Source: a virus
Virus record (IMG/VR): IMGVR_UViG_3300046820_000903
Location: 1 to 64,000 of that record
Strand: one strand, 5' to 3'
Length of the DNA: 64,000 nucleotides
A program made the translations under genes and the position numbers. Under the pieces are notes generated by a model. That model did not search any database. It was given only the letters and a program-made list of their open reading frames with translations, and was not told the origin of the DNA. Within the stretch, counting starts at the first letter, position 1. The number at the start of each line of letters is the position of its first letter. Below, in pieces: positions 51,610 to 62,163 of the stretch.

Positions 51610-52561
51610 TGATTTGTCCTTGTATCCAGTCGTATGTTTTATTCAACCCATACTCTAAGTTCTCACCAGGTGCCCAGCCTATTGTGTCTCGAATAAGTTT
51701 GTTGTGACTGTTGCGCCCCATAACTCCCGTTGGCCCATCTACATTTCTAATAGACACATTCTTGTATGCCAACTTGGCAATCAATAGAGCTAAATCATTG
51801 ATGCTGATCATACGCTCGCTACCCAAGTTTAAAGGAAACTCGCAGTCGCTGGCCATGATGCGATGTATGCCTTCTATACACTCATCAATGTACAAGAAGC
51901 TACGAGTTTGATTGCCTGGCCCCCATATCTCTACTGTGTCGCTTTCTGTGCATTGTGCTACCTTGCGACACAAGGCCGCCGGCGCTTTTTCTTTGCCGTT
52001 ATTCCAAGAACCCCAAGGACCAAAAATATTATGAAAGCGGGCAATTCTTGCTCTGATGCCATAATTGCGAGCAAAACTCATGTACAGACGCTCACTGAAT
52101 AACTTCTCCCATCCATATTCGCTGTCTGGGTCAGCAGGATACGCACTTTCTTCGCTCAGTAACGGATTGGCTGGATCCAGTTGGTTATGGCTGGGATACA
52201 TGCAGGCGCTACTACTGTAGAACACACGAGTAACACCCTTCTTGGTCATTTCATGTACAATATTCAAATTGATCATTGCTGAGTTATGTACAATGTCAGC
52301 GTCATGTTCACCAGTGAAGATATAACCTGCGCCGCCCATGTCCGCGGCCAGTTGATATATTTCGTAAATGTCTTCTGTTATCAATTGCTGTACATTGGTT
52401 TGCACACGAAGATCCATAATATGGAATTCATCTGCATCTGTAGCACTGAACTCTGGATGCTTTAGGTCAGCACCAATTACATAGTGACCTAGTCGTTTTA
52501 AATCAGTCACCAAGTGACTTCCAATGAAGCCACCGGCTCCGCATACTAATACTTTTTTCAT
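51602..52561 (-). CDS. NAD-dependent epimerase, GDP-mannose 3,5-epimerase-like
   Basis: GAGGFIG, QLAADMGGAGYI, SSSACMYP, YGWEK, KEKAPAALCRK. Confidence 0.9.
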   Translation of the reverse strand: MKKVLVCGAGGFIGSHLVTDLKRLGHYVIGADLKHPEFSATDADEFHIMDLRVQTNVQQLITEDIYEIYQLAADMGGAGYIFTGEHDADIVHNSAMINLNIVHEMTKKGVTRVFYSSSACMYPSHNQLDPANPLLSEESAYPADPDSEYGWEKLFSERLYMSFARNYGIRARIARFHNIFGPWGSWNNGKEKAPAALCRKVAQCTESDTVEIWGPGNQTRSFLYIDECIEGIHRIMASDCEFPLNLGSERMISINDLALLIAKLAYKNVSIRNVDGPTGVMGRNSHNKLIRDTIGWAPGENLEYGLNKTYDWIQGQINE

Positions 52562-54066
52562 TCTGATGGTTCTATAATAGTTGTTGAAGGCTGATTGTAG
52601 TTGCCTGTTTTGGCTATTTCTTTAGCCAATTTACTTACCTCATACTCTCTTTGACACCTGTCAATGAAGGTAACCATTTCAGGGAACACTTCCTTGAAGT
52701 TGGTACCATTGCGCTTGTCATGCTCTTGTATGTACAAATAAAAATCATGCCGGGCAACAACGTTTTCTCGTTTGTTTGGATCCTCAGCCTTGATAACGTT
52801 CAGTAGTCTTGCCAAGTTATCTACTTCATGCTGATAAAAGCCATCCTGATAGTCCACGTATTCAAATTGGCCCACATTTCCTGTCATCCAGTTCACATGC
52901 TTTTCCAATGTTTCTATCAGGCCTGGGCCTGCAATCAATGCACTTAAATGCCTGGGATGACGCAGGTATGGGAAGTCAAGTGTGACGCCACGAAGGCCAC
53001 TGACCTTATGTTCGGGTGTTGGTGATCTACGTATTGCAAGAATATCTTTTAAGAAATTTCTAAATTGTGGAATACTCAATATATTGAATGTACACATGAT
53101 TGTCACATCCAACTCTGGATAGCGTAGAGCCAAGTTCCATAAGTTGTAGTACCACTTGTTATAGTCCAGGCCTACACGAACATATTCGGCTTGCTTGCCC
53201 CATGTATCACAAGACGTAAAGATCTTTAAATTTCTAACCTTGCCTTCACGTTTAATTTGTTGACATTTCTCAAAGAACTTGTCAATGATGTCTTGGTCAA
53301 CACCCAGGTTAGTATTAATGGCCAGTTCTAAGTCAGGATTAGGATTTTCAATGATCCAGTCTAGTGTGCGGAATGTTTCTTTGCTTAGTAAGGGTTCGCC
53401 TCCAGTAATACGAAATACCTTTAATTCAGGATATAGTGTAGGCCACCACTTCCACCATGCGTCGATATAAGGGTTGACGTCCTTATTTGGAATAGGCATG
53501 CGGTTTGCGCTTTCCAACCAGGTAATATCTTGTGTGACAGATTGACTGAGTTTAATAGCACCATGGCGCTTGGCAGACTGCATTAGTGTACTGCTGATCT
53601 CTGGACTGCAATAACCACATCCAAAGTTACATACATTACTAAAACTCACTTCCACGTAGGCTGGAACAACATCTGCATCCCAGGGCAGTTTAGAACTGGA
53701 TTCTAAGAATGGTTCTCCCCAGACTGTATCAGCACTTTTCTTTGTACGATCCGAAACGTATGTGCCATCATTACCTGGAGCATCTTCTACTCGCCAGCAG
53801 TAGTCGCACTCTTTGGGACGTTGACCTTCCAGCATTAGTTTACGAGAGTGCTTCTTGTGCCAGGTATTGTGCAAGGCACTGGGATTGACTACAATTTCCT
53901 CTAAGGGAATTTTATGTGGACTGGGATGATGACACGAGTGTGTTTGCCCAGTGGCCAAATGAATGGTTACTTGTTGCCATTTGGCCACACAATAAGTGGG
54001 GCTGACCTTGTCCAATTCTTTATGAATACGGATCAGTCTGTCGTTGTATTGTTCGGTAATTGCCAT
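52558..54066 (-). CDS. Radical SAM protein with N-terminal twitch/SPASM-like Cys cluster
   Basis: CVAKW...SCHH...CDYCW; CNFGCGYC; ITGGEPLL; start MAITEQ 5 nt after TAAATA. Confidence 0.88.
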   Translation of the reverse strand: MAITEQYNDRLIRIHKELDKVSPTYCVAKWQQVTIHLATGQTHSCHHPSPHKIPLEEIVVNPSALHNTWHKKHSRKLMLEGQRPKECDYCWRVEDAPGNDGTYVSDRTKKSADTVWGEPFLESSSKLPWDADVVPAYVEVSFSNVCNFGCGYCSPEISSTLMQSAKRHGAIKLSQSVTQDITWLESANRMPIPNKDVNPYIDAWWKWWPTLYPELKVFRITGGEPLLSKETFRTLDWIIENPNPDLELAINTNLGVDQDIIDKFFEKCQQIKREGKVRNLKIFTSCDTWGKQAEYVRVGLDYNKWYYNLWNLALRYPELDVTIMCTFNILSIPQFRNFLKDILAIRRSPTPEHKVSGLRGVTLDFPYLRHPRHLSALIAGPGLIETLEKHVNWMTGNVGQFEYVDYQDGFYQHEVDNLARLLNVIKAEDPNKRENVVARHDFYLYIQEHDKRNGTNFKEVFPEMVTFIDRCQREYEVSKLAKEIAKTGNYNQPSTTIIEPSE

Positions 54067-54085
54067 AATGTTATTTAGTATGTAG

Positions 54086-55387
54086 TTAATCCCATAAGGT
54101 TTCAATTGCTTCTACAACTTGAGTTGAGATTAGTTGATCCATAAATGCCTTGTTGGTCAGCAGATGTCTATTGTGCTGTATTGTTGGTTGGCACTGGAGT
54201 AATAGTGCGGCAAAGTCTGCTTCACTTAGTGCAATGATACGCTTTAATGTACGAGTCAATTCAATTCCACGTTCTACAGGATCAGTTATGGCGTCATATG
54301 ATTCATCTATATACGGGCCAAAGGTTTTAAATCCATACTCACGTAGCTGTTGTAAGAATCCCGGAGCACCTGCCAACAAGAATATTTGTCCGTGTAGCAT
54401 GGGTTTAAAAATCTTTTCTGTGGGGAATATGGCATTGGTAAAGAAAAGTGTTTCAGTAACAAGATTTACAGGGTATTCATCGTATAGTGTGTTATTTAAA
54501 TCCAGTGCGTAGTTGATGTCAAAGCGATCTGTGTCTGCTATCAGCGGAAGTTTATTATACACTTGATTAAAACTGTTGTCAAGATTGTCAATGTAACCAT
54601 TGCAACGATCTTTAAGTAGTTGCCATTGATAAGGCAAGTCAAAGTCTTTGCCTTCCCAATTGATATCAGGTTCCGTAAAATGCTTGGGCATACTGACAGC
54701 ACCATGTTCTACAAGACCAAAGTGTTCCAGTAGCGTAACAAAGAATATGCGGTGCGGATACGGGCGCCTATTTAAACTCATAAAACGACGAGTACCAGGT
54801 TTCCATTTGGCCATTGGGATACCTAGTTCTGGCTTGTCCCTGTAGCGTTGATTAAAGTTAATCCAGTTGGCAAAGAATCCATACCAAGCACACTTCATTA
54901 ACACTGGCATCTTGTTTCTGCGGCACCATTGTAGATACACAGATTCTACGTTGCAAGTACTGCTGACATACAGCACACGATCTGCTAAGTTGTATTGTGC
55001 TATCCAATTGGTCAAGTCTGGGAATACTTCTTCCGTAAAGCCCTCTTCTGAGTAGTCAATTATAATGCGACAGTTGGCGTCATGCAATGCCAGTAGTCTG
55101 TTGGGATTGGAAGCAAACCACGAGTCAATCAGGGCCAGCTTCTGCTGATTCCATCCTCCGTGTAGACCAATGATTACTACACCACGTTCTGTGGCTTTAT
55201 ATTCATTAAATGTTTTAAATTCATTTTGGCTTTTAAAGTAATTGAAAATGATGTAGTCTAGTAGCGGATCAATTGTAAAGTTCTTAGAGCCTTCTTCGGG
55301 TATGTACTGTTTCAAGTAACGGTTCCATAAGTTCTCATCTGTAAAGTCTGGGGCAATGTAATCGCCATACCACGTGATAGTTGTCAT
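54086..55387 (-). CDS. Hypothetical protein, putative glycosyltransferase-like (paralog of 48960-50270)
   Basis: FMSLNRRPYPHR...VNLVTETLFF...PTEKIFKPM...GFKTF..IDESYD. Confidence 0.6.
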   Translation of the reverse strand: MTTITWYGDYIAPDFTDENLWNRYLKQYIPEEGSKNFTIDPLLDYIIFNYFKSQNEFKTFNEYKATERGVVIIGLHGGWNQQKLALIDSWFASNPNRLLALHDANCRIIIDYSEEGFTEEVFPDLTNWIAQYNLADRVLYVSSTCNVESVYLQWCRRNKMPVLMKCAWYGFFANWINFNQRYRDKPELGIPMAKWKPGTRRFMSLNRRPYPHRIFFVTLLEHFGLVEHGAVSMPKHFTEPDINWEGKDFDLPYQWQLLKDRCNGYIDNLDNSFNQVYNKLPLIADTDRFDINYALDLNNTLYDEYPVNLVTETLFFTNAIFPTEKIFKPMLHGQIFLLAGAPGFLQQLREYGFKTFGPYIDESYDAITDPVERGIELTRTLKRIIALSEADFAALLLQCQPTIQHNRHLLTNKAFMDQLISTQVVEAIETLWD

Positions 55388-55461: not shown

Positions 55462-56097
55462 TTATTTGCTGTCAGTGTGAACTGATCGTAATACTTCTAG
55501 TATATGATGAAAGTGTGCAGTACGATCAGCTAAGCCAATTGTGCCACCGTTGATCTTTTTAGTGACTGTTGTTACATCTTCCTTGTCAGCCCATGTATTC
55601 AACTTGCGAGTATCCCAGAACCAACCTGCACTTAGTACAGCCACTGGGTTCTTGGCAACTTGATCTGGGTCTGCTACTAAGTCTAAGCCTAGTGCTTTAC
55701 CACATGATTTGTAGTTGTCTTTACCTGTCAATTGAATTACACCGCGCCCGCGAAACTTGTAGCCTTCGCCTGATGCCTCATTGCCATTGCCCATACGGTC
55801 GCAATAGGCTCTGTTTGCAATCTTTTCTGGCTTACGTGCGTATTCGTCTGCAACACCTGCAAACTTCTTAGGCCAAAAAGCCAACAATGCTTTGGCTTGA
55901 TAGTTTAAGTTTTCTTCTACTGCATTAAAGTTACCACTTTCGTGGGCAGTTTGTGCAATAAACATGGCCTGTCTTTCGGGCGTATTGATTTCAAAGTGTT
56001 CAAACGTTTCGTTTAGTCCTTCTAAGAACATAGACAAACGTTCTGACTTTGCCTGGGGCAAACATGCTTTTAACACATCCAAAGTTAATTCTGACAT
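55462..56097 (-). CDS. Glycoside hydrolase family 19 endolysin
   Basis: FIAQTAHESG, EENLNY, FRGRGVIQLTGKDNY, SAGWFW, TKKINGG. Confidence 0.93.
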   Translation of the reverse strand: MSELTLDVLKACLPQAKSERLSMFLEGLNETFEHFEINTPERQAMFIAQTAHESGNFNAVEENLNYQAKALLAFWPKKFAGVADEYARKPEKIANRAYCDRMGNGNEASGEGYKFRGRGVIQLTGKDNYKSCGKALGLDLVADPDQVAKNPVAVLSAGWFWDTRKLNTWADKEDVTTVTKKINGGTIGLADRTAHFHHILEVLRSVHTDSK

Positions 56098-56107
56098 AAA
56101 TGTCTCC

Positions 56108-57415
56108 TTATTGTATGTGCTTATTTAACAAATCAGAGGTTCCAGGTAGCGTTTTACGCCAGTCTGTGCCACGTGTAGTGTCTAAAAAGTCCATTAATTC
56201 TACGTAACGCTTAACTGCTAGTATGTTTTCAAACTTACTGTCAAAGTGATCAATTAACCATTTGTGAATAGTTCTACCTACAGGTGTGTCCCGTGTAGCG
56301 TATAACTCTGCTAATTCTTCCTTAGCTGAACGTGGTAAACTCATAACGCTGTGCATAGCAGGAGCATCAACAAACTTAACTTGGAATGGTACGCCTTGGC
56401 TGTGGACCCAATCTTCTGTTTCAAACATTGTATGTGTAGTGCTCATTTGTGTACAGCTTGTTAGTCTATGTAACTTAACAACGCCTTCTTTTTCGTACTC
56501 TTTAACTCGCTTAACGTTGCGTTGGAATGTGTCCCACGAACTTGTACGAATTAACTCAAAAGGTTCGTAAGCCGCATCAATGCTGCCGGCCAATTCAACA
56601 TGCTTGAAGTGACTCCAACGCTGTGCTAATTTGTCGTTAATAACTGACAAGTTAGTATCGTAGTCTAAGTATACTTCTTTAGCACGACCTGACGCAATAA
56701 TACGATCTAGCATTTCGTCGTGTGCAGGAACAATCATTGGTTCCCCGCCTGTGATGTAGATATGTTCTAGTGTAGGTAGTAGTTCATCAAACTTAGACCA
56801 CCATATGTCAGTTTCCCACCAACGTACTTCTTTTGGATTAAACAGCTTGCCGTGTTCGTTGCGTTCTAGTTTAACTCTAGGATGACCAAAGCCCCAAGGC
56901 ACTTCTAAATTATTATTGTTAAATCCAACCCAGTCTTCATACCATTGGTTTGAGTAGCTGGGTCCACAGTGAACACACTTTTGGTTACATAAGTTTCCAA
57001 AGCGTATGTCTAGTGTTGTTGGATTCCATTTGACATAGCCATTTTCGTCCATGTCTGCATTCATATAAGTGGCAGGACTTACTATGTTTGTGCTTGGATT
57101 ACGGCGCTCCATGCTTTGTCTACGACTAGCATTAATGTTCTTTGGATCGCCACCTGTTGCGCTTTCACGCTCACTACAGCATGAGCACAAGTCATGCCAC
57201 CCGCCTTGTGTTTTTACATCATTAATGCGAACTGACCTATGCCACTTACCATTGAGCCCTTGATTAGGCGTGTGTGTCATAATGTTCATTAACTTGCCGT
57301 TCTCATCAAGAGCCATGCCCTCGTTCATTGTTCGACTGTTAGTTAATGCACATATCCTATAATCGCCAAGAGGGGTTATCATCAACCCCTGCCACGGCAG
57401 TCTACAAAAAGCCAT
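56108..57415 (-). CDS. Radical SAM protein with N-terminal twitch/SPASM-like Cys cluster
   Basis: FCRLPW...IC...CSCC; CNQKCVHC; ITGGEPM. Confidence 0.88.
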   Translation of the reverse strand: MAFCRLPWQGLMITPLGDYRICALTNSRTMNEGMALDENGKLMNIMTHTPNQGLNGKWHRSVRINDVKTQGGWHDLCSCCSERESATGGDPKNINASRRQSMERRNPSTNIVSPATYMNADMDENGYVKWNPTTLDIRFGNLCNQKCVHCGPSYSNQWYEDWVGFNNNNLEVPWGFGHPRVKLERNEHGKLFNPKEVRWWETDIWWSKFDELLPTLEHIYITGGEPMIVPAHDEMLDRIIASGRAKEVYLDYDTNLSVINDKLAQRWSHFKHVELAGSIDAAYEPFELIRTSSWDTFQRNVKRVKEYEKEGVVKLHRLTSCTQMSTTHTMFETEDWVHSQGVPFQVKFVDAPAMHSVMSLPRSAKEELAELYATRDTPVGRTIHKWLIDHFDSKFENILAVKRYVELMDFLDTTRGTDWRKTLPGTSDLLNKHIQ

Positions 57416-57418
57416 TGT

Positions 57419-60049
57419 TTACTTTCGGGCTAAAAAGCCCTGAGAGTTACGCTTGTATCCTTCTGGGATTAGCTTTACTTGTTTATCCAACATACAGAAG
57501 TATTCGTTTTCCTTTAATTGTGCAGATGCGTTTACAAGTGCTTGATCAAAGTTTTCATTCTTTTGTTTGTTGTGAATAGTCCACATTGTGGCATACGCAC
57601 GTTCTGGATTGTCTTTATACTGCTTTAGTAATTTCTTTTCTAAGTCTTGATCAAAGCCAGGAGGTGCGCTTTCTTTAACTTTTTTGTTGTCCTTCTTTTC
57701 AGGACGCTTGCCACCAGTTTCTTTTTCTAGACGTTGTAGTAATTCTTCATCACTGCCGCCACCCAGCTTGTCAAATGCTTTTTTAGCGCCTGCTTTGATA
57801 GTGTCAATAATACCTTCATTTACAGCAGGAGCCATTGACCTACGGCTTTCAGCCACTTGTTTGATTACAGCTTTAGCGGCTTGTGCTTGTTCTGGAGGTA
57901 ACGTAGCAATTTTAGACTGTGTATATTGTTCTACTTTGTCATCGCCGCCTAGTTTCTCAGAGGCCATGTCCCATAGTTTTTCTACACCCTTCATGCCTAA
58001 CTTTGCCGCACTATAAGCGCCATAAGCGGCCATTGGGATACCAAGTAATGGGCCTAAGATACCAACAATAGCTGGAGCACCTGCTGCCGCAACAACACCT
58101 AATCCAAGACCGCCGGCAAACTTAGCCAATGCAGGAGCGTCTTCTTCTACACCACGTTCGCCAGGAACGCTGCCACGAAAGTTCTTTTGCTTGTCTAGTA
58201 CAGCTCGCATCTTGGTCATAATACGATCAAATGCACGAGCATCTGTTAAAGCACGTAAGAACTCTTCTTGACGGCCAGCTTTCATAAAAGACTTATAACG
58301 TCCGCCAACAAAGCGAGCTTCTGGATATTCTAATGTAATTGGCTCACCACCAACCATGATTTCAGCATCTTGCCCTTGTTCAACGGCTTTTAAAATGCTT
58401 AGTATGTTCTTACGGCCTTGTTCCGATTCCATATTTGCTTCCTTAATTTTTGTTACGTTTTCAACCTTAGGATCTATGCCTTGTTCTTTTTGGCTTAGCA
58501 AATAGTCCCAAACACTTGTTGTCATCATTTCTGCTTTGGCAATTTTTTCTTGCGCCCATTCTGGCAAGTTATCGTTGTCGCCAATTGTGTCCATTAGGCC
58601 GTTGACCGCTCGAGCCATGGTACGCAGATTGCTTTTGGCCATACCTGCTTCGTCATCGTATTCAGGATTACTGGCTTCAGTCATACTTTCACCCATGCCA
58701 GCTAGATTCTGTTCTACTTGTTTAACCCATCCTGACACATCACTGCTACCGATTTCTTCTACATCGCCTACAAAGTCAGCAACTTCATCCACTGCCGCTC
58801 CTACCTTTTCTGGGCCGTGTTTGGCCAATAGGTCTGTGCGTTGCATTAGAATACGACGAATAATGGCCTGTGCTACTGGTGAGTCTTCATCACCAGGATT
58901 GTCCATCATGCCTTCCGCCACACCTTGTTCTAAGCTTTCGACAATTACGCCTAAGCCTTTATTACCTGTGCCTTCTTTATTTGGACCAAGAATTTGAGTG
59001 ACTCTGACTTTTTTACCGTCATGGGGACCACCGTTTACTGTAATTATATTACCTACTTGTCTATTAGGCTTAAGGTTAAGTTTAATCTCTTGCGGTGCAG
59101 AATTTTGTGGTTGTGCTGATTGTTGCGGAGGCTGTTCTTGCTTTTGTGCAGGTTTGCTACCCTTCTTCCACTCGTATACCTCGTCATTCAATGAAGCTCT
59201 ATATGCTAATACAAATTGTTTTTCTGACCCCGACCTGTAAACAAAGTTGTCAATTTTAGATATTTTAACTGCTTCTTTGGTTGCATTGTCAATTGCTTGT
59301 TTTGCATTATAGCAGTCAGTTAATTCACAATACTTTGTAACCAAATCATACACATTAGTTGCCATGTACTCCATTGGAGAAATACTATCTCCGGTAGAAA
59401 TTTCTATGTCGGCGGACCTAAGTCTAATTTTTAATCCGCCAGTGGCATCTGTTAGCGCCTTACCAGCATAATTAGCCCAGTAACCTGGCCCTTTAGCTTG
59501 TGCCAATGTTGGTAAACCTGCGCCAGCTACAGCGGCAGCTCCGGCACCCAAGCCTTTTAAGAATCCTCTACGGTCGATTTCTTCTAAACTGCCTTCCGCC
59601 ACACCTTCAGCAGGCTTGTCTTTCCAAGGCTTCCACATACCGTGCTTGTGATTATCTACAATGTATAGTGTATGTGTGACAGAGCCGTCTTCATTCTTAG
59701 ATTTTTCTACATCAACAACTTTTTTAGCACCCCATTCGTTCTTGTCAAACATGTATTCTTCATGGTCAGCAGTTGCTTCGTCTTGTGCCTGGATAACGTA
59801 TAACTTGTTATACTCTTTACCGTTAGGAGCAGATCCTTCTTGGTCAACATACTTTACAGCACGTTTCTGTGTGAATGCTTTGTGTTGAGCTTGACGTTGT
59901 TGACTAATAGCATCTTCGTCATCTGCGGCCTGTTGAGCAGGGCTAGGACGTGGCTCGCTGGGAACTCGAGCCTTAGGTTTAGCATTTAGCGCCGCATAAT
60001 AATCGACGTCGCTGTCAAAGTTGCGTGGATCTACTTCGTTGATTTTCAT
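57419..60049 (-). CDS. Large acidic modular protein, probable virion-internal polyprotein
   Basis: Starts MKINE; many hydrophobic-x-E junctions (GVAEG x2, MTEA, IKEA, VEED, VNEG, VKES); contains an internal Tat-like signal and a hydrophobic segment. Confidence 0.7.
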   Translation of the reverse strand: MKINEVDPRNFDSDVDYYAALNAKPKARVPSEPRPSPAQQAADDEDAISQQRQAQHKAFTQKRAVKYVDQEGSAPNGKEYNKLYVIQAQDEATADHEEYMFDKNEWGAKKVVDVEKSKNEDGSVTHTLYIVDNHKHGMWKPWKDKPAEGVAEGSLEEIDRRGFLKGLGAGAAAVAGAGLPTLAQAKGPGYWANYAGKALTDATGGLKIRLRSADIEISTGDSISPMEYMATNVYDLVTKYCELTDCYNAKQAIDNATKEAVKISKIDNFVYRSGSEKQFVLAYRASLNDEVYEWKKGSKPAQKQEQPPQQSAQPQNSAPQEIKLNLKPNRQVGNIITVNGGPHDGKKVRVTQILGPNKEGTGNKGLGVIVESLEQGVAEGMMDNPGDEDSPVAQAIIRRILMQRTDLLAKHGPEKVGAAVDEVADFVGDVEEIGSSDVSGWVKQVEQNLAGMGESMTEASNPEYDDEAGMAKSNLRTMARAVNGLMDTIGDNDNLPEWAQEKIAKAEMMTTSVWDYLLSQKEQGIDPKVENVTKIKEANMESEQGRKNILSILKAVEQGQDAEIMVGGEPITLEYPEARFVGGRYKSFMKAGRQEEFLRALTDARAFDRIMTKMRAVLDKQKNFRGSVPGERGVEEDAPALAKFAGGLGLGVVAAAGAPAIVGILGPLLGIPMAAYGAYSAAKLGMKGVEKLWDMASEKLGGDDKVEQYTQSKIATLPPEQAQAAKAVIKQVAESRRSMAPAVNEGIIDTIKAGAKKAFDKLGGGSDEELLQRLEKETGGKRPEKKDNKKVKESAPPGFDQDLEKKLLKQYKDNPERAYATMWTIHNKQKNENFDQALVNASAQLKENEYFCMLDKQVKLIPEGYKRNSQGFLARK
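58909..59607. repeat. Perfect 18-bp direct repeat TGCCTTCCGCCACACCTT (58909-58926 and 59590-59607) encoding GVAEG
   Basis: Both copies read directly; spacing 681 bp = 227 codons, so in frame. Confidence 0.9.
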
Positions 60050-62163
60050 TTTCTTAATACACTTTTCATAAACTGTGTGGCCATTGCTTGCGCTTCGCTA
60101 ACTGGCTTCATGTGAGTACTTAGCCCGATACTTTCTTGGGCTGGTTGCTTACTAATATCATGGAATCCAAAGCGGTCTACCATTAGGTATGTACTGCCCA
60201 CTTTCATAATATCGCCAACGCTCATGCTGGTGTGTCCTGTGTTGCTTTGATTGATTAGATCACGTGCTTCTCCACGTGGACTCCAGTTTTCACCTTGCAT
60301 CATTGAAAACACTTTGTCTGGATTAGTTTCACGTAGTGTACCAATTTGTACATGTGTTTGTTCCAGTGTTTCTGGTGTGGGCATTTGACCCTTCTTGGTC
60401 AACCAGTTGGCACCCATCATCATGTCACGGCCTGCTTCATCGTTCCAGTACCAAACTTCTGTGCTGCCTTCTGGGTAAGCATCAGACAAGCTGGAGTATT
60501 GTGTAGCCGCAGGTCCTGCTTCTGTTTGTAATTCACGCTCGCCAAAGTAGTTTAACATTTGACGGAAGCCTTCGCCATCGTTTAGTGTTTGTTGCATTAT
60601 GGCCTTGCTTTCTGGCTTTAACTGATCAAACTTGCTTAGGATCTTGTTGGCTGTTTTAGCACTGATAGTAATGCTACTACCGTCGGCCAAGGTCATTGGC
60701 TGTGGCTTATCGTAGTCAGCTTGACGACGAATCTGCATGATAATGTTCTTGTCTGCTGATGCTTGATCAGCTGGTGTAGCTTCATCTTCTTCAGCTTCGG
60801 TTACCGGTGCCATACCGCCTACTTCACGATCTAGTTTGTCAGCAATCCATTGTACTGGATCACCTTCACGTGCTTTGGCAACACCATAAGGCATTTCACC
60901 ACTGTTTAAATAATAATCAAATAAGGCTTCGTAAAATTCTGGATTATCATCAATTTCGCCGCCAGCTTTAAATTGTTTAAATGAATCTGCAAATTGATCT
61001 AAAATACTTTCTAATTCCGGATCAACAATTAGGCCTTCATTTAAATCAATTCCTAAATCTTCAGCAAATAATTCACCAATTTCGTTGTCATCATCTGCGT
61101 CACGTTGTGCTTTATAACTTAGACGATCATAGTAGTGAAAGTGTAGATCTGTTTCTAAAGCTTGACTTAGTTCGCCGCCGGCTTTAAAGTGCTCTACAGC
61201 TTCTTCATTGTTGGCAATGATTCTGGCCAACTGTGGATCCATACGGTATTCAGCTTCTTTAACTTCGATGCCAGCTTGACGTAAAACAGCAATGTTGTCA
61301 TCGCCCAATTCTTCTTCGTCATCTAATTCCAATTGACCGTTCTTGTTAAACGTTACATTGGTTGTACCGCCTGTTTTGTCAAACTGTGGCTTAGGCGCAG
61401 AACTGGTAGCGTTGCCCATGTTGGGAGTATTGCCGCCTGCACGACTTGGAATAGTGCCTGTAGTACCAATTGTACCAAAGCCTTCGCTTACGCTTTCATT
61501 TTGTATGCCTGTTGTATGTGGGTGACGTACATAATAAGCTTGACCGCTTGCACTGATATAGTGTGGTAGTCGTTGTCCGTCACCGTCCATAAACTCTAAG
61601 TCACGTGCGCTAATGCGTGTAATACGGTTGTCCATGTCATAAAGAATTAGAAACTTGCCGTTTTGGCTCATACGTGCTTGGTCATATACCTTCATACTAC
61701 GTCCGTCGGCTGGTAAACCATATTGCTGGCGAGTATCTTGTCTAACACGATCTGTTTCTGCACGACGAATTTCATTTTGACGAGCATTATAAATTCTACG
61801 CTGTGTTTCACGTTCTGCTTCACGTTGACGAACTAGTTCTTTATAGTTAGGGCTAAAAATATCTGCCATGTGACGACCAACGCTGTATTCTGTGCCAGGA
61901 TGACGATTCTGTCCTGGCGTACCTGTATTCTGAGCATGTGCCCCGCTCATTGCAACACCAGCGGCCATTGCTGCCGGAATAATCTTTCTGGCAACATGTT
62001 GTAGGATGTCTTTACCAGCTTCGCTTAGGTCACCTTCAACAACAACAATGGTGTCAAACGGGTCTTTAAACTGCTTGACCTGCTGAAGCACAATGCCTTC
62101 ATGTAGACGACTGCTAATTTGCTTAACAACACGACCTTCACGGACTAATTGAATACGAATCAT
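60046..62163 (-). CDS. Large acidic modular protein, probable virion-internal polyprotein
   Basis: Junctions LSEA, VSEG, VKEA, LNEG, VTEA; internal signal-peptide-like segment; C-terminal GHTSMSVGDI (YodL-like). Confidence 0.7.
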   Translation of the reverse strand: MIRIQLVREGRVVKQISSRLHEGIVLQQVKQFKDPFDTIVVVEGDLSEAGKDILQHVARKIIPAAMAAGVAMSGAHAQNTGTPGQNRHPGTEYSVGRHMADIFSPNYKELVRQREAERETQRRIYNARQNEIRRAETDRVRQDTRQQYGLPADGRSMKVYDQARMSQNGKFLILYDMDNRITRISARDLEFMDGDGQRLPHYISASGQAYYVRHPHTTGIQNESVSEGFGTIGTTGTIPSRAGGNTPNMGNATSSAPKPQFDKTGGTTNVTFNKNGQLELDDEEELGDDNIAVLRQAGIEVKEAEYRMDPQLARIIANNEEAVEHFKAGGELSQALETDLHFHYYDRLSYKAQRDADDDNEIGELFAEDLGIDLNEGLIVDPELESILDQFADSFKQFKAGGEIDDNPEFYEALFDYYLNSGEMPYGVAKAREGDPVQWIADKLDREVGGMAPVTEAEEDEATPADQASADKNIIMQIRRQADYDKPQPMTLADGSSITISAKTANKILSKFDQLKPESKAIMQQTLNDGEGFRQMLNYFGERELQTEAGPAATQYSSLSDAYPEGSTEVWYWNDEAGRDMMMGANWLTKKGQMPTPETLEQTHVQIGTLRETNPDKVFSMMQGENWSPRGEARDLINQSNTGHTSMSVGDIMKVGSTYLMVDRFGFHDISKQPAQESIGLSTHMKPVSEAQAMATQFMKSVLRK

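Follow-up and report, generated by a model that had tools for sequence, protein, structure and literature searches.

A twin-arginine signal inside a modular protein of a jumbo phage heads a mobile cassette and may be unmasked by the head protease

The window analysed here is the whole stretch of 64,000 nucleotides (nt) at positions 1–64,000 of IMG/VR record IMGVR_UViG_3300046820_000903, and coordinates refer to this window unless stated otherwise. The minus-strand open reading frame (ORF) at 57419..60049 encodes an 876 amino acid (aa) protein containing the peptide PAEGVAEGSLEEIDRRGFLKGLGAGAAAVAGAGLPTLAQAKGPGYW. Judged from its sequence, this stretch is a genuine, cleavable signal of the twin-arginine translocation (Tat) type. 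It heads a mobile cassette of 227 codons that is recombined in frame at an 18 base pair (bp) repeat encoding GVAEG. The reading favoured here, at somewhat short of an even chance, is that a phage head protease would unmask the signal and that the Tat machinery of the next host would then export the freed piece.

Residues 149–187 read GVAEG-SLEE-ID-RRGFLKG-LGAGAAAVAGAGLPTL-AQA-KG. GVAEG occupies positions 149–153 and is followed by L155-E156-E157, the twin arginines R160-R161 and A183-Q184-A185; a signal peptidase cut is predicted before K186. An earlier reading of this DNA, made without database searches (the sequence-only reading), had flagged 59490–59590, which corresponds to residues 154–187, as a cryptic Tat signal about 155 residues inside a protein. 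The claim is borne out by the recurrence of the signal in relatives, described below, and by the NCBIfam model TIGR01409 (TAT_signal_seq), which matches residues 158–185 with 20.2 bits for the whole protein and 24.2 bits for the fragment, the curated cut-off being 16.7. Pfam PF10518 (TAT_signal) matches residues 157–175 with 21.7 bits (E = 1.9e-4), just under its gathering score of 22.7. The twin-arginine core is D159-R-R-G-F-L-K165, with Asp where the consensus has Ser or Thr, as that reading had correctly pointed out. The hydrophobic region (h-region) is weak, with a top 15-residue Kyte-Doolittle mean of 1.39 vs 2.11 at residues 638–678 of the same protein. The signal begins at residue 158 of 876 and is not N-terminal; the module upstream of it is coding and has homologues of its own. 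A hydropathy scan of residues 1–157 showed no hydrophobic segment, so no Sec-inserted helices precede the Tat signal. Residues 158–185 are confirmed as a complete, cleavable-looking Tat signal.

A search of a large protein collection gave 560 relatives of the 876 aa protein, all mosaic; the detailed counts rest on the 150 of these that were stored. The segment carrying the signal (Tat unit) is present in 36 of the 150. The twin arginines (RR) lie within the first 30 residues in 10 carriers, 8 of which start with Met and 2 with Val, the latter two appearing cut, and are internal, at positions 45–889, in 26. A scan of IMG/VR with an alignment of the Tat unit yielded 23 confirmed loci, all 23 carrying the unit. 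In 20 of these loci, at least 50 residues of a long open frame lie between its first in-frame ATG and RR; one further locus is cut by a contig end and two are identical and N-terminal. There are 56 distinct 45-residue forms of the unit, which stand before many unrelated passengers and mostly deep inside long modular proteins. RRGFLKG is invariant in all 56, and A-x-A is found at +15 to +36 from the first Arg in 44. Pfam TAT_signal matches 30 of 35 motif-bearing relatives, and TonB_2, TonB_C or TolA C-terminal domains are found behind the signal in 3 of the 35. TonB and TolA C-terminal domains act in the periplasm.

The sequence-only reading had placed the signal directly after a predicted cleavage site, and both L-E-E and V-A-E do sit immediately upstream. 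It had also proposed a survey of relatives for RR behind such junctions: the upstream prefix [SQ]L[EDS]E[IVM][DSNT] occurs in 43 distinct contexts and RR comes next in 41. The more general prefix, hydrophobic-[DE]-E-[IVM]-[DSNT], is kept in internal and N-terminal copies alike.

Eight stand-alone small genes (P0121, P0132, P0127, P0129, P0135, P0136, P0139 and P0141) display the signal at the true N-terminus; the Tat unit thus appears to be used as a true leader. P0121 (248 aa) is 85% identical to residues 149–300 of the window protein. It shows the order signal, passenger, Gln-rich linker and small C-terminal part, and terminates in GVAE-DK. Pfam KOW is found on the part of P0121 equivalent to the C-terminal part of the cassette (1 of 35 members). 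Diverged internal copies at loci L059, L061, L065 and L073 retain RRGFLKG through synonymous changes. Codons are near-invariant in 19 distinct loci, taken from among L054–L076 plus the window (CGT AGA GGA TTC TTA AAA GGC for the core; GGT GTG GCG GAA GGC for the repeat). A unit of about 80 nt encoding QGVAEGSLEEIDRRGFLKGLGAAAVA is nearly synonymous-invariant across phages and protein contexts, with the two Arg codons (CGT AGA) throughout.

The cassette measures 681 bp (58909–59607 with the repeats) and consists of the signal, a predicted four-helix bundle and a linker. The 18-bp repeat is present in exactly two copies in the 82,291-base record, 681 bp apart, and its 14-mer core also occurs only twice. 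An AlphaFold2 model of the cassette (21 aligned sequences) shows helices at model residues 40–55, 77–96, 101–116 and 127–150, the predicted local distance difference test score (pLDDT) of this block being about 80–95; the signal, linker and C-terminal part are modelled as disordered. Foldseek retrieved no PDB entry for the model at E ≤ 1e-3; what it returned were generic helical bundles.

In P0002, otherwise 100% identical to the window protein, the cassette is missing and ...KPAEGVAEG runs straight into MMDNPG.... P0004 likewise is without the cassette, and P0028 and P0042 hold it inside otherwise different proteins. In sequencing run X1 (Logan contigs) the depth is 6.5 inside the cassette vs 15.8 and 19.8 in the flanking contigs. 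A 4.1-kb contig of this run ends at the upstream repeat and bears a 12-letter loose end equal to window positions 58897–58908, i.e. the cassette-less junction, which is a hint only, as fewer than 31 letters lie on the far side. In run X3, a 4.5-kb contig passes through the junction into the cassette. Uncovered stretches in X1, X3 and X4 are no evidence of absence. Given the P0002 and P0004 variants and the X1 and X3 contigs, the cassette is gained and lost in natural populations. The NPG that follows the junction was considered as a 2A-like skipping site and rejected, because the residue after G is Q, D or E and not P and because 2A skipping requires eukaryotic ribosomes.

Borders of this kind are not confined to the cassette. 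BLASTP of the 876 aa protein against the 150 stored relatives gave 288 high-scoring segment pairs, whose ends cluster near residues 150, 377, 456, 535, 634, 743 and 791. All seven clusters fall on [ILVM]-x-E-[GASD] (VAEG, VAEG, MTEA, IKEA, VEED, VNEG and VKES). The protein is thus built of eight exchangeable modules with hydrophobic-x-Glu sites at their borders. V634-E635-E636 immediately precedes a second hydrophobic module, and P0004 has a different module at the position of residues 638–690. A related layout is found in the neighbouring 705 aa ORF, where a conserved 48-residue N-terminal part ending in L-S-E precedes a Sec-like signal. IMG/VR relatives at 50–81% identity retain this arrangement in 7 of 7 cases, but taken alone it could equally be an ordinary signal-anchor.

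The head genes of relatives provide a candidate for the protease. Record G009, the closest relative of the window phage (DNA polymerase 86% identical), carries in a row a Peptidase_S77 protease of the T4 gp21 type (92.5 bits), a 370 aa scaffold-like protein and a Gp23-family capsid protein. The capsid protein is 63% identical to that of Pseudomonas phage PA5oct. Record G003 also has a Peptidase_S77 protease and capsid genes. The T4 gp23 propeptide has 65 residues, according to an excerpt of PMC5694885, and when T4 gp23 and gp24 are aligned with the G009 and G003 capsid proteins, Y-L-T-E of G009 falls in the column of T4 gp23 L-T-E65. Excerpts of PMC9026906 describe gp21 of T4 as acting inside proheads and cleaving after Glu in L/I-X-E. 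L155-E156-E157 fits this exactly as a sequence match. In T4, gp21 strips capsid-targeting leaders of 10–20 residues off internal proteins that are later ejected into the host (PMC9026906, PMC5694885 and PMC3012670, in the portions available). The family N-termini here (MKINEV.., MKIKEILTE.., MKFFQEI.. and MKINQVITE..) resemble the T4 ipII and ipIII starts, and the 876 aa ORF itself starts with MKINEV. This leader pattern, a post hoc one, is found in 53 of 141 Met-starting stored relatives vs 4 of 93 ORFs of the record, 3 of those 4 being polyprotein-like. The ejection protein gp47 of phage SPN3US, as excerpted from PMC5694885, loses its propeptide to the protease, and the mature fragment then has a transmembrane segment at its front end; this is a precedent for unmasking a hydrophobic N-terminus.

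The favoured reading would join these elements as follows. The precursor polyprotein would be taken into the prohead and cut by a gp21-type head protease after E152 and/or E157, to give a piece that begins ...IDRRGFLKG. This piece would be ejected with the DNA and exported by the Tat machinery of the next host, and signal peptidase would trim it after A185. The modules probably act separately, because the gain or loss of a Tat signal in mid-chain would otherwise be hard to tolerate. The mechanism given by the sequence-only reading, i.e. cleavage during head maturation and Tat export of an ejected protein, is supported in part: by profile scores the signal is genuine and conserved, the junction fits gp21 specificity, a gp21-type protease is present in the nearest relative, and TonB/TolA passengers are periplasmic. 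Its premise that Tat signals normally work at the N-terminus is weakened by the internal, uncleaved signals of classes IV and V, as far as the available part of the 2026 review PMC13673990 describes them. Nothing observed here speaks for or against the roles it had suggested for the exported protein, superinfection exclusion and anti-defence.

Several points weigh against head-protease unmasking. The observations cover the signal and how well it is conserved, a cassette that is present in some forms and absent from others, the border motif and, for the closest relative, a protease gene; from these are inferred the cleavage, packaging and ejection, the export by Tat and the role of the passenger. 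No protease or capsid gene was found in the 82-kb record of the window phage, which is rated 25% complete. Record G005 (343 kb, rated 99% complete, holding locus L054) has the Tat cassette, yet gave no match to Peptidase_S77, Pfam Gp23 or the G003 capsid protein; its head genes are either too diverged or missing. V150-A151-E152 is V-x-E, not the L/I-x-E of T4, and fits only if Val is accepted. The new N-terminus 'ID-RR' would leave an unusually short n-region. The leader pattern was written after the data had been seen. Internal Tat signals can also work uncut, as in classes IV and V (PMC13673990, in the part available). Since the codons of the unit are near-invariant, its conservation appears to be largely at the DNA level, from recent spread or recombinational homogenisation, and the retention of RR in 41 of 43 contexts is thus a weak sign of selection. 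Only four diverged loci keep the motif through synonymous change. The stand-alone genes, too, have GVAE and a few more residues at their ends, a trait compatible with a scar of recombination, and P0040 and P0079 are truncated remnants. Lastly, the endolysin and small hydrophobic ORFs that adjoin the polyprotein genes fit late envelope proteins made for the producing cell.

This last point belongs to an unlikely alternative, in which cutting at these junctions and use of the signal both take place in the producing cell. The genes would then serve the envelope or lysis late in infection, and the Tat piece would end up in the producer's own periplasm and not reach the next host through the capsid. 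In favour of this, the GH19 endolysin lies on the strand of the three polyprotein genes, two genes downstream of them, a pair of small hydrophobic ORFs begins just upstream, and passengers of the TonB/TolA type suit envelope remodelling. However, the sole protease candidate found is of the gp21 type, which is prohead-internal in T4 (PMC9026906, excerpt), and the family N-termini resemble the T4 capsid-targeting leaders. The ipII and ipIII genes of T4 themselves adjoin endolysin gene e; the endolysin neighbourhood is therefore no argument against cargo.

It is quite unlikely that the internal copy is inert, i.e. that the signal works only in the stand-alone genes and that shuffling of the cassette at the GVAEG repeat, which is conserved as DNA, has recently produced in-frame fusions that are tolerated. 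The perfect 18-bp repeat flanking a polymorphic cassette agrees with such an origin, as do the remnants P0040 and P0079 and the near-identical codons of the unit in 19 loci, which make the copies young or homogenised. Yet internal copies outnumber N-terminal ones, by 26 to 10 in the stored relatives and at no fewer than 20 of 23 IMG/VR loci. They precede many unrelated passengers, and they persist with synonymous change in diverged lineages (including P0145 vs P0135).

Export without any cut is improbable. Here the signal would be internal and uncleaved, as in class V (FecR type), so that module 1 stays cytoplasmic and everything downstream of the signal crosses the membrane. The available part of PMC13673990 lists internal uncleaved signals that follow a folded N-terminal domain, as in FecR, or Sec-inserted helices, as in Rieske proteins, and the 152 residues of module 1 are without a hydrophobic segment. 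But about 690 residues, including the membrane-strength module at 638–678, would need to cross folded, and the weak h-region (1.39) and A-Q-A are typical of a cleaved signal and not of an anchor. Furthermore, the 100% identical variant without the cassette means that modules 3–8, with the membrane-strength module among them, would change compartment with gain or loss of the cassette. The FecR-like route is disfavoured for this reason, which leaves two main options: either the modules are cut and then act separately, or the signal is inert. The number and variety of internal copies favour the former.

An internal translation start, at M138 or at the GTG of GVAEG, would yield an ordinary N-terminal Tat precursor, as the sequence-only reading had itself raised. 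This is very improbable. M138 is 22 residues away from RR on the upstream side, 13 of 14 Val-bearing units use GTG for the V of GVAEG, and a gene caller began P0002 at the equivalent Met, so that the sequence is compatible with such a start. Yet no Shine-Dalgarno-like run is found at a usable distance before M138 or the GTG, several contexts lack a Met over the 45 residues upstream, and the product would still carry modules 3–8, keeping 490 residues downstream of the passenger. As a general internal start the GTG of GVAEG was rejected, other junctions using GTA, CTA or CTG. A chance or low-complexity linker that resembles a Tat signal is hardly credible, the sub-threshold Pfam score and the low-complexity Ala/Gly run being outweighed by a TIGR01409 score above cut-off, RRGFLKG invariant in 56 units and the N-terminal position in stand-alone genes; on this sequence evidence the Tat unit is not a product of chance.

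Known systems resemble the arrangement in part. The T4 internal proteins IPI, IPII and IPIII and the T4 protein Alt resemble it in a short conserved start of the M-K-x-x-x-E type (as in ipII and ipIII), here a candidate leader, and share with it a hydrophobic-x-Glu site before variable cargo; a gp21-type protease is present in the lineage. The genes also lie near an endolysin and the cargo is highly variable between relatives. In phage T4 (L087, record positions 65416–66997), endolysin gene e is the immediate same-strand neighbour of ipII and ipIII. In contrast, T4 has separate small cargo genes, whereas here many modules are found in one long ORF with V-A-E and L-E-E junctions inside the chain. 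No T4 cargo with an export signal is described in the available portions of PMC9026906, PMC5694885 and PMC3012670; here the candidate cargo carries a Tat signal. SPN3US gp47, gp53 and gp54 and the phiKZ inner-body proteins lose propeptides exceeding 100 residues by cleavage after A/S/G-x-E (PMC5694885, excerpt), and the 152-residue module 1 may play the role of such a giant-phage propeptide. However, these ejection proteins belong to the phiKZ-type lineage, while the capsid protein of the relative here is 63% identical to the PA5oct type, and SPN3US gp47 exposes a membrane helix, whereas what cutting would expose here is a Tat signal that ends in A-x-A.

Among cellular Tat substrates, those of class IV (actinobacterial Rieske) and class V (FecR) are alike in that the signal is not N-terminal, as given in the part of PMC13673990 available; PMC3471235 and PMC5449189 are further papers listed on such substrates. 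Their signals are uncleaved anchors of cellular membrane proteins, unlike the weak h-region, A-Q-A and mobile cassette found here. Class IV signals follow Sec-inserted helices, of which there are none in residues 1–157. For class V the internal position behind a soluble module fits, but the weak h-region, A-Q-A, the downstream membrane module and the cassette polymorphism do not. Ordinary Tat signals (TIGR01409/PF10518) share the R-R-x-F-L-K core, a weak Ala/Gly h-region and an A-x-A c-region, the C-terminal part of the signal; they are N-terminal, whereas here the signal starts at residue 158 of 876 with Asp before RR and an acidic upstream flank.

No publication linking a twin-arginine signal to phage head cargo was found in the literature searched. 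Tat signals and T4-type cargo are kinds already known; the present analysis contributes the stand-alone N-terminal forms, the cassette-minus variant with its read-level hint, the alignment of the capsid maturation site and the class V alternative. Head-protease unmasking, if true, would give the first virion-delivered phage protein re-routed through a host export pathway and a case of a protease-activated Tat signal. The biology of phage 'internal proteins', so far one of the cytoplasm, would then take in the cell envelope, and a sixth mode of Tat signal presentation would join the five classes of the current review (PMC13673990, in the part available). The cassette layout represents a natural set of Tat passengers with a design rule of leader, cut site, signal and cargo. 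If the signal is not unmasked, there is still a widespread, DNA-fixed system of module shuffling in uncultured jumbo phages.

A wider and more doubtful reading is that T4-related jumbo phages of lakes pack 'address-labelled' cargo, the cut pieces gaining export- or membrane-signal N-termini. The exposed signals would be of the Tat type here and Sec-like in the gene next to it, with a hydrophobic hairpin farther along. Injected proteins would be sorted to the periplasm and membrane of the next host before any phage gene is expressed, and the cargo set would be reshuffled in populations through recombination at the DNA-fixed linker.

Table 1. Features of the polyprotein locus, in window coordinates; residue numbers are those of the 876 aa protein except in the row on the 705 aa ORF signal
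Feature	Position	Strand	Basis or remark
Modular ORF, 876 aa, eight modules	57419..60049	-	BLASTP vs 150 stored relatives
Upstream copy of perfect 18-bp direct repeat encoding GVAEG, residues 149–153	59590..59607	-	
L155-E156-E157, candidate L-x-E protease site two residues before the twin arginines	59579..59587	-	sequence
Tat-type signal peptide, I158–A185	59495..59578	-	twin arginines R160-R161 at 59567–59572, Ala/Gly h-region, A-Q-A
Passenger domain, residues 188–298, predicted four-helix bundle	59156..59488	-	AlphaFold2
Gln/Pro-rich linker and small C-terminal part, residues 299–375	58925..59155	-	homology; pLDDT below 50
Downstream copy of 18-bp GVAEG repeat, residues 376–380, cassette end	58909..58926	-	
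Second hydrophobic module, residues 638–690, directly behind V634-E635-E636	57980..58138	-	Kyte-Doolittle 2.11, membrane-helix strength
Neighbouring ORF, 705 aa	60046..62163	-	
Internal Sec-like signal of the 705 aa ORF, A49–A77, A-H-A before Q78, directly behind L46-S47-E48	61933..62019	-	
GH19 endolysin, two genes downstream of the polyprotein genes	55462..56097	-	phrog_181 at 1e-82; Glyco_hydro_19

The full record has 82,291 bases and its rating of 25% completeness implies a genome of roughly 330 kb for the phage, an uncultured T4-related jumbo phage from a lake. The window DNA polymerase is 86% identical to that of G009 and 56–59% identical to those of four other large records, G005 (56%) being one of its relatives. 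With the polymerases of Sinorhizobium phage Phosso and Agrobacterium phage Atu_ph07 it shares 48% identity. A tblastn search with the whole 876 aa protein against 50,697 GenBank phage records gave no match, nor did one with the 41-residue Tat unit, a short query run with the low-complexity filter on; among these records, then, no cultured phage with virion proteomics turned up that has the module. A search of PHROGs gave no match for either the 876 aa or the 705 aa protein.

The T4 late-promoter motif TATAAATA shows 0 matches in the window vs 4.6 expected. ATAAATA as a promoter of the third polyprotein gene was rejected, since at 5 nt before the ATG it is too close. In run X7, a metatranscriptome library, one 256-letter contig matches 58457–58712 in the region of modules 3 and 4 with 1 mismatch, a match that falls short of proving transcription.

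The three polyprotein genes lie on one strand, the same as that of the endolysin. Two radical-SAM proteins, at 56108–57415 and 52558–54105 (minus strand), flank a 439 aa ORF of no assigned function and the endolysin, and this stretch sits between the polyprotein genes and a nucleotide-sugar epimerase. Beyond the window, at record positions 64554–64835 and 65634–65984 (plus strand), are two small ORFs with hydrophobic N-terminal halves; divergent from the polyprotein operon, they could be holin-like candidates.

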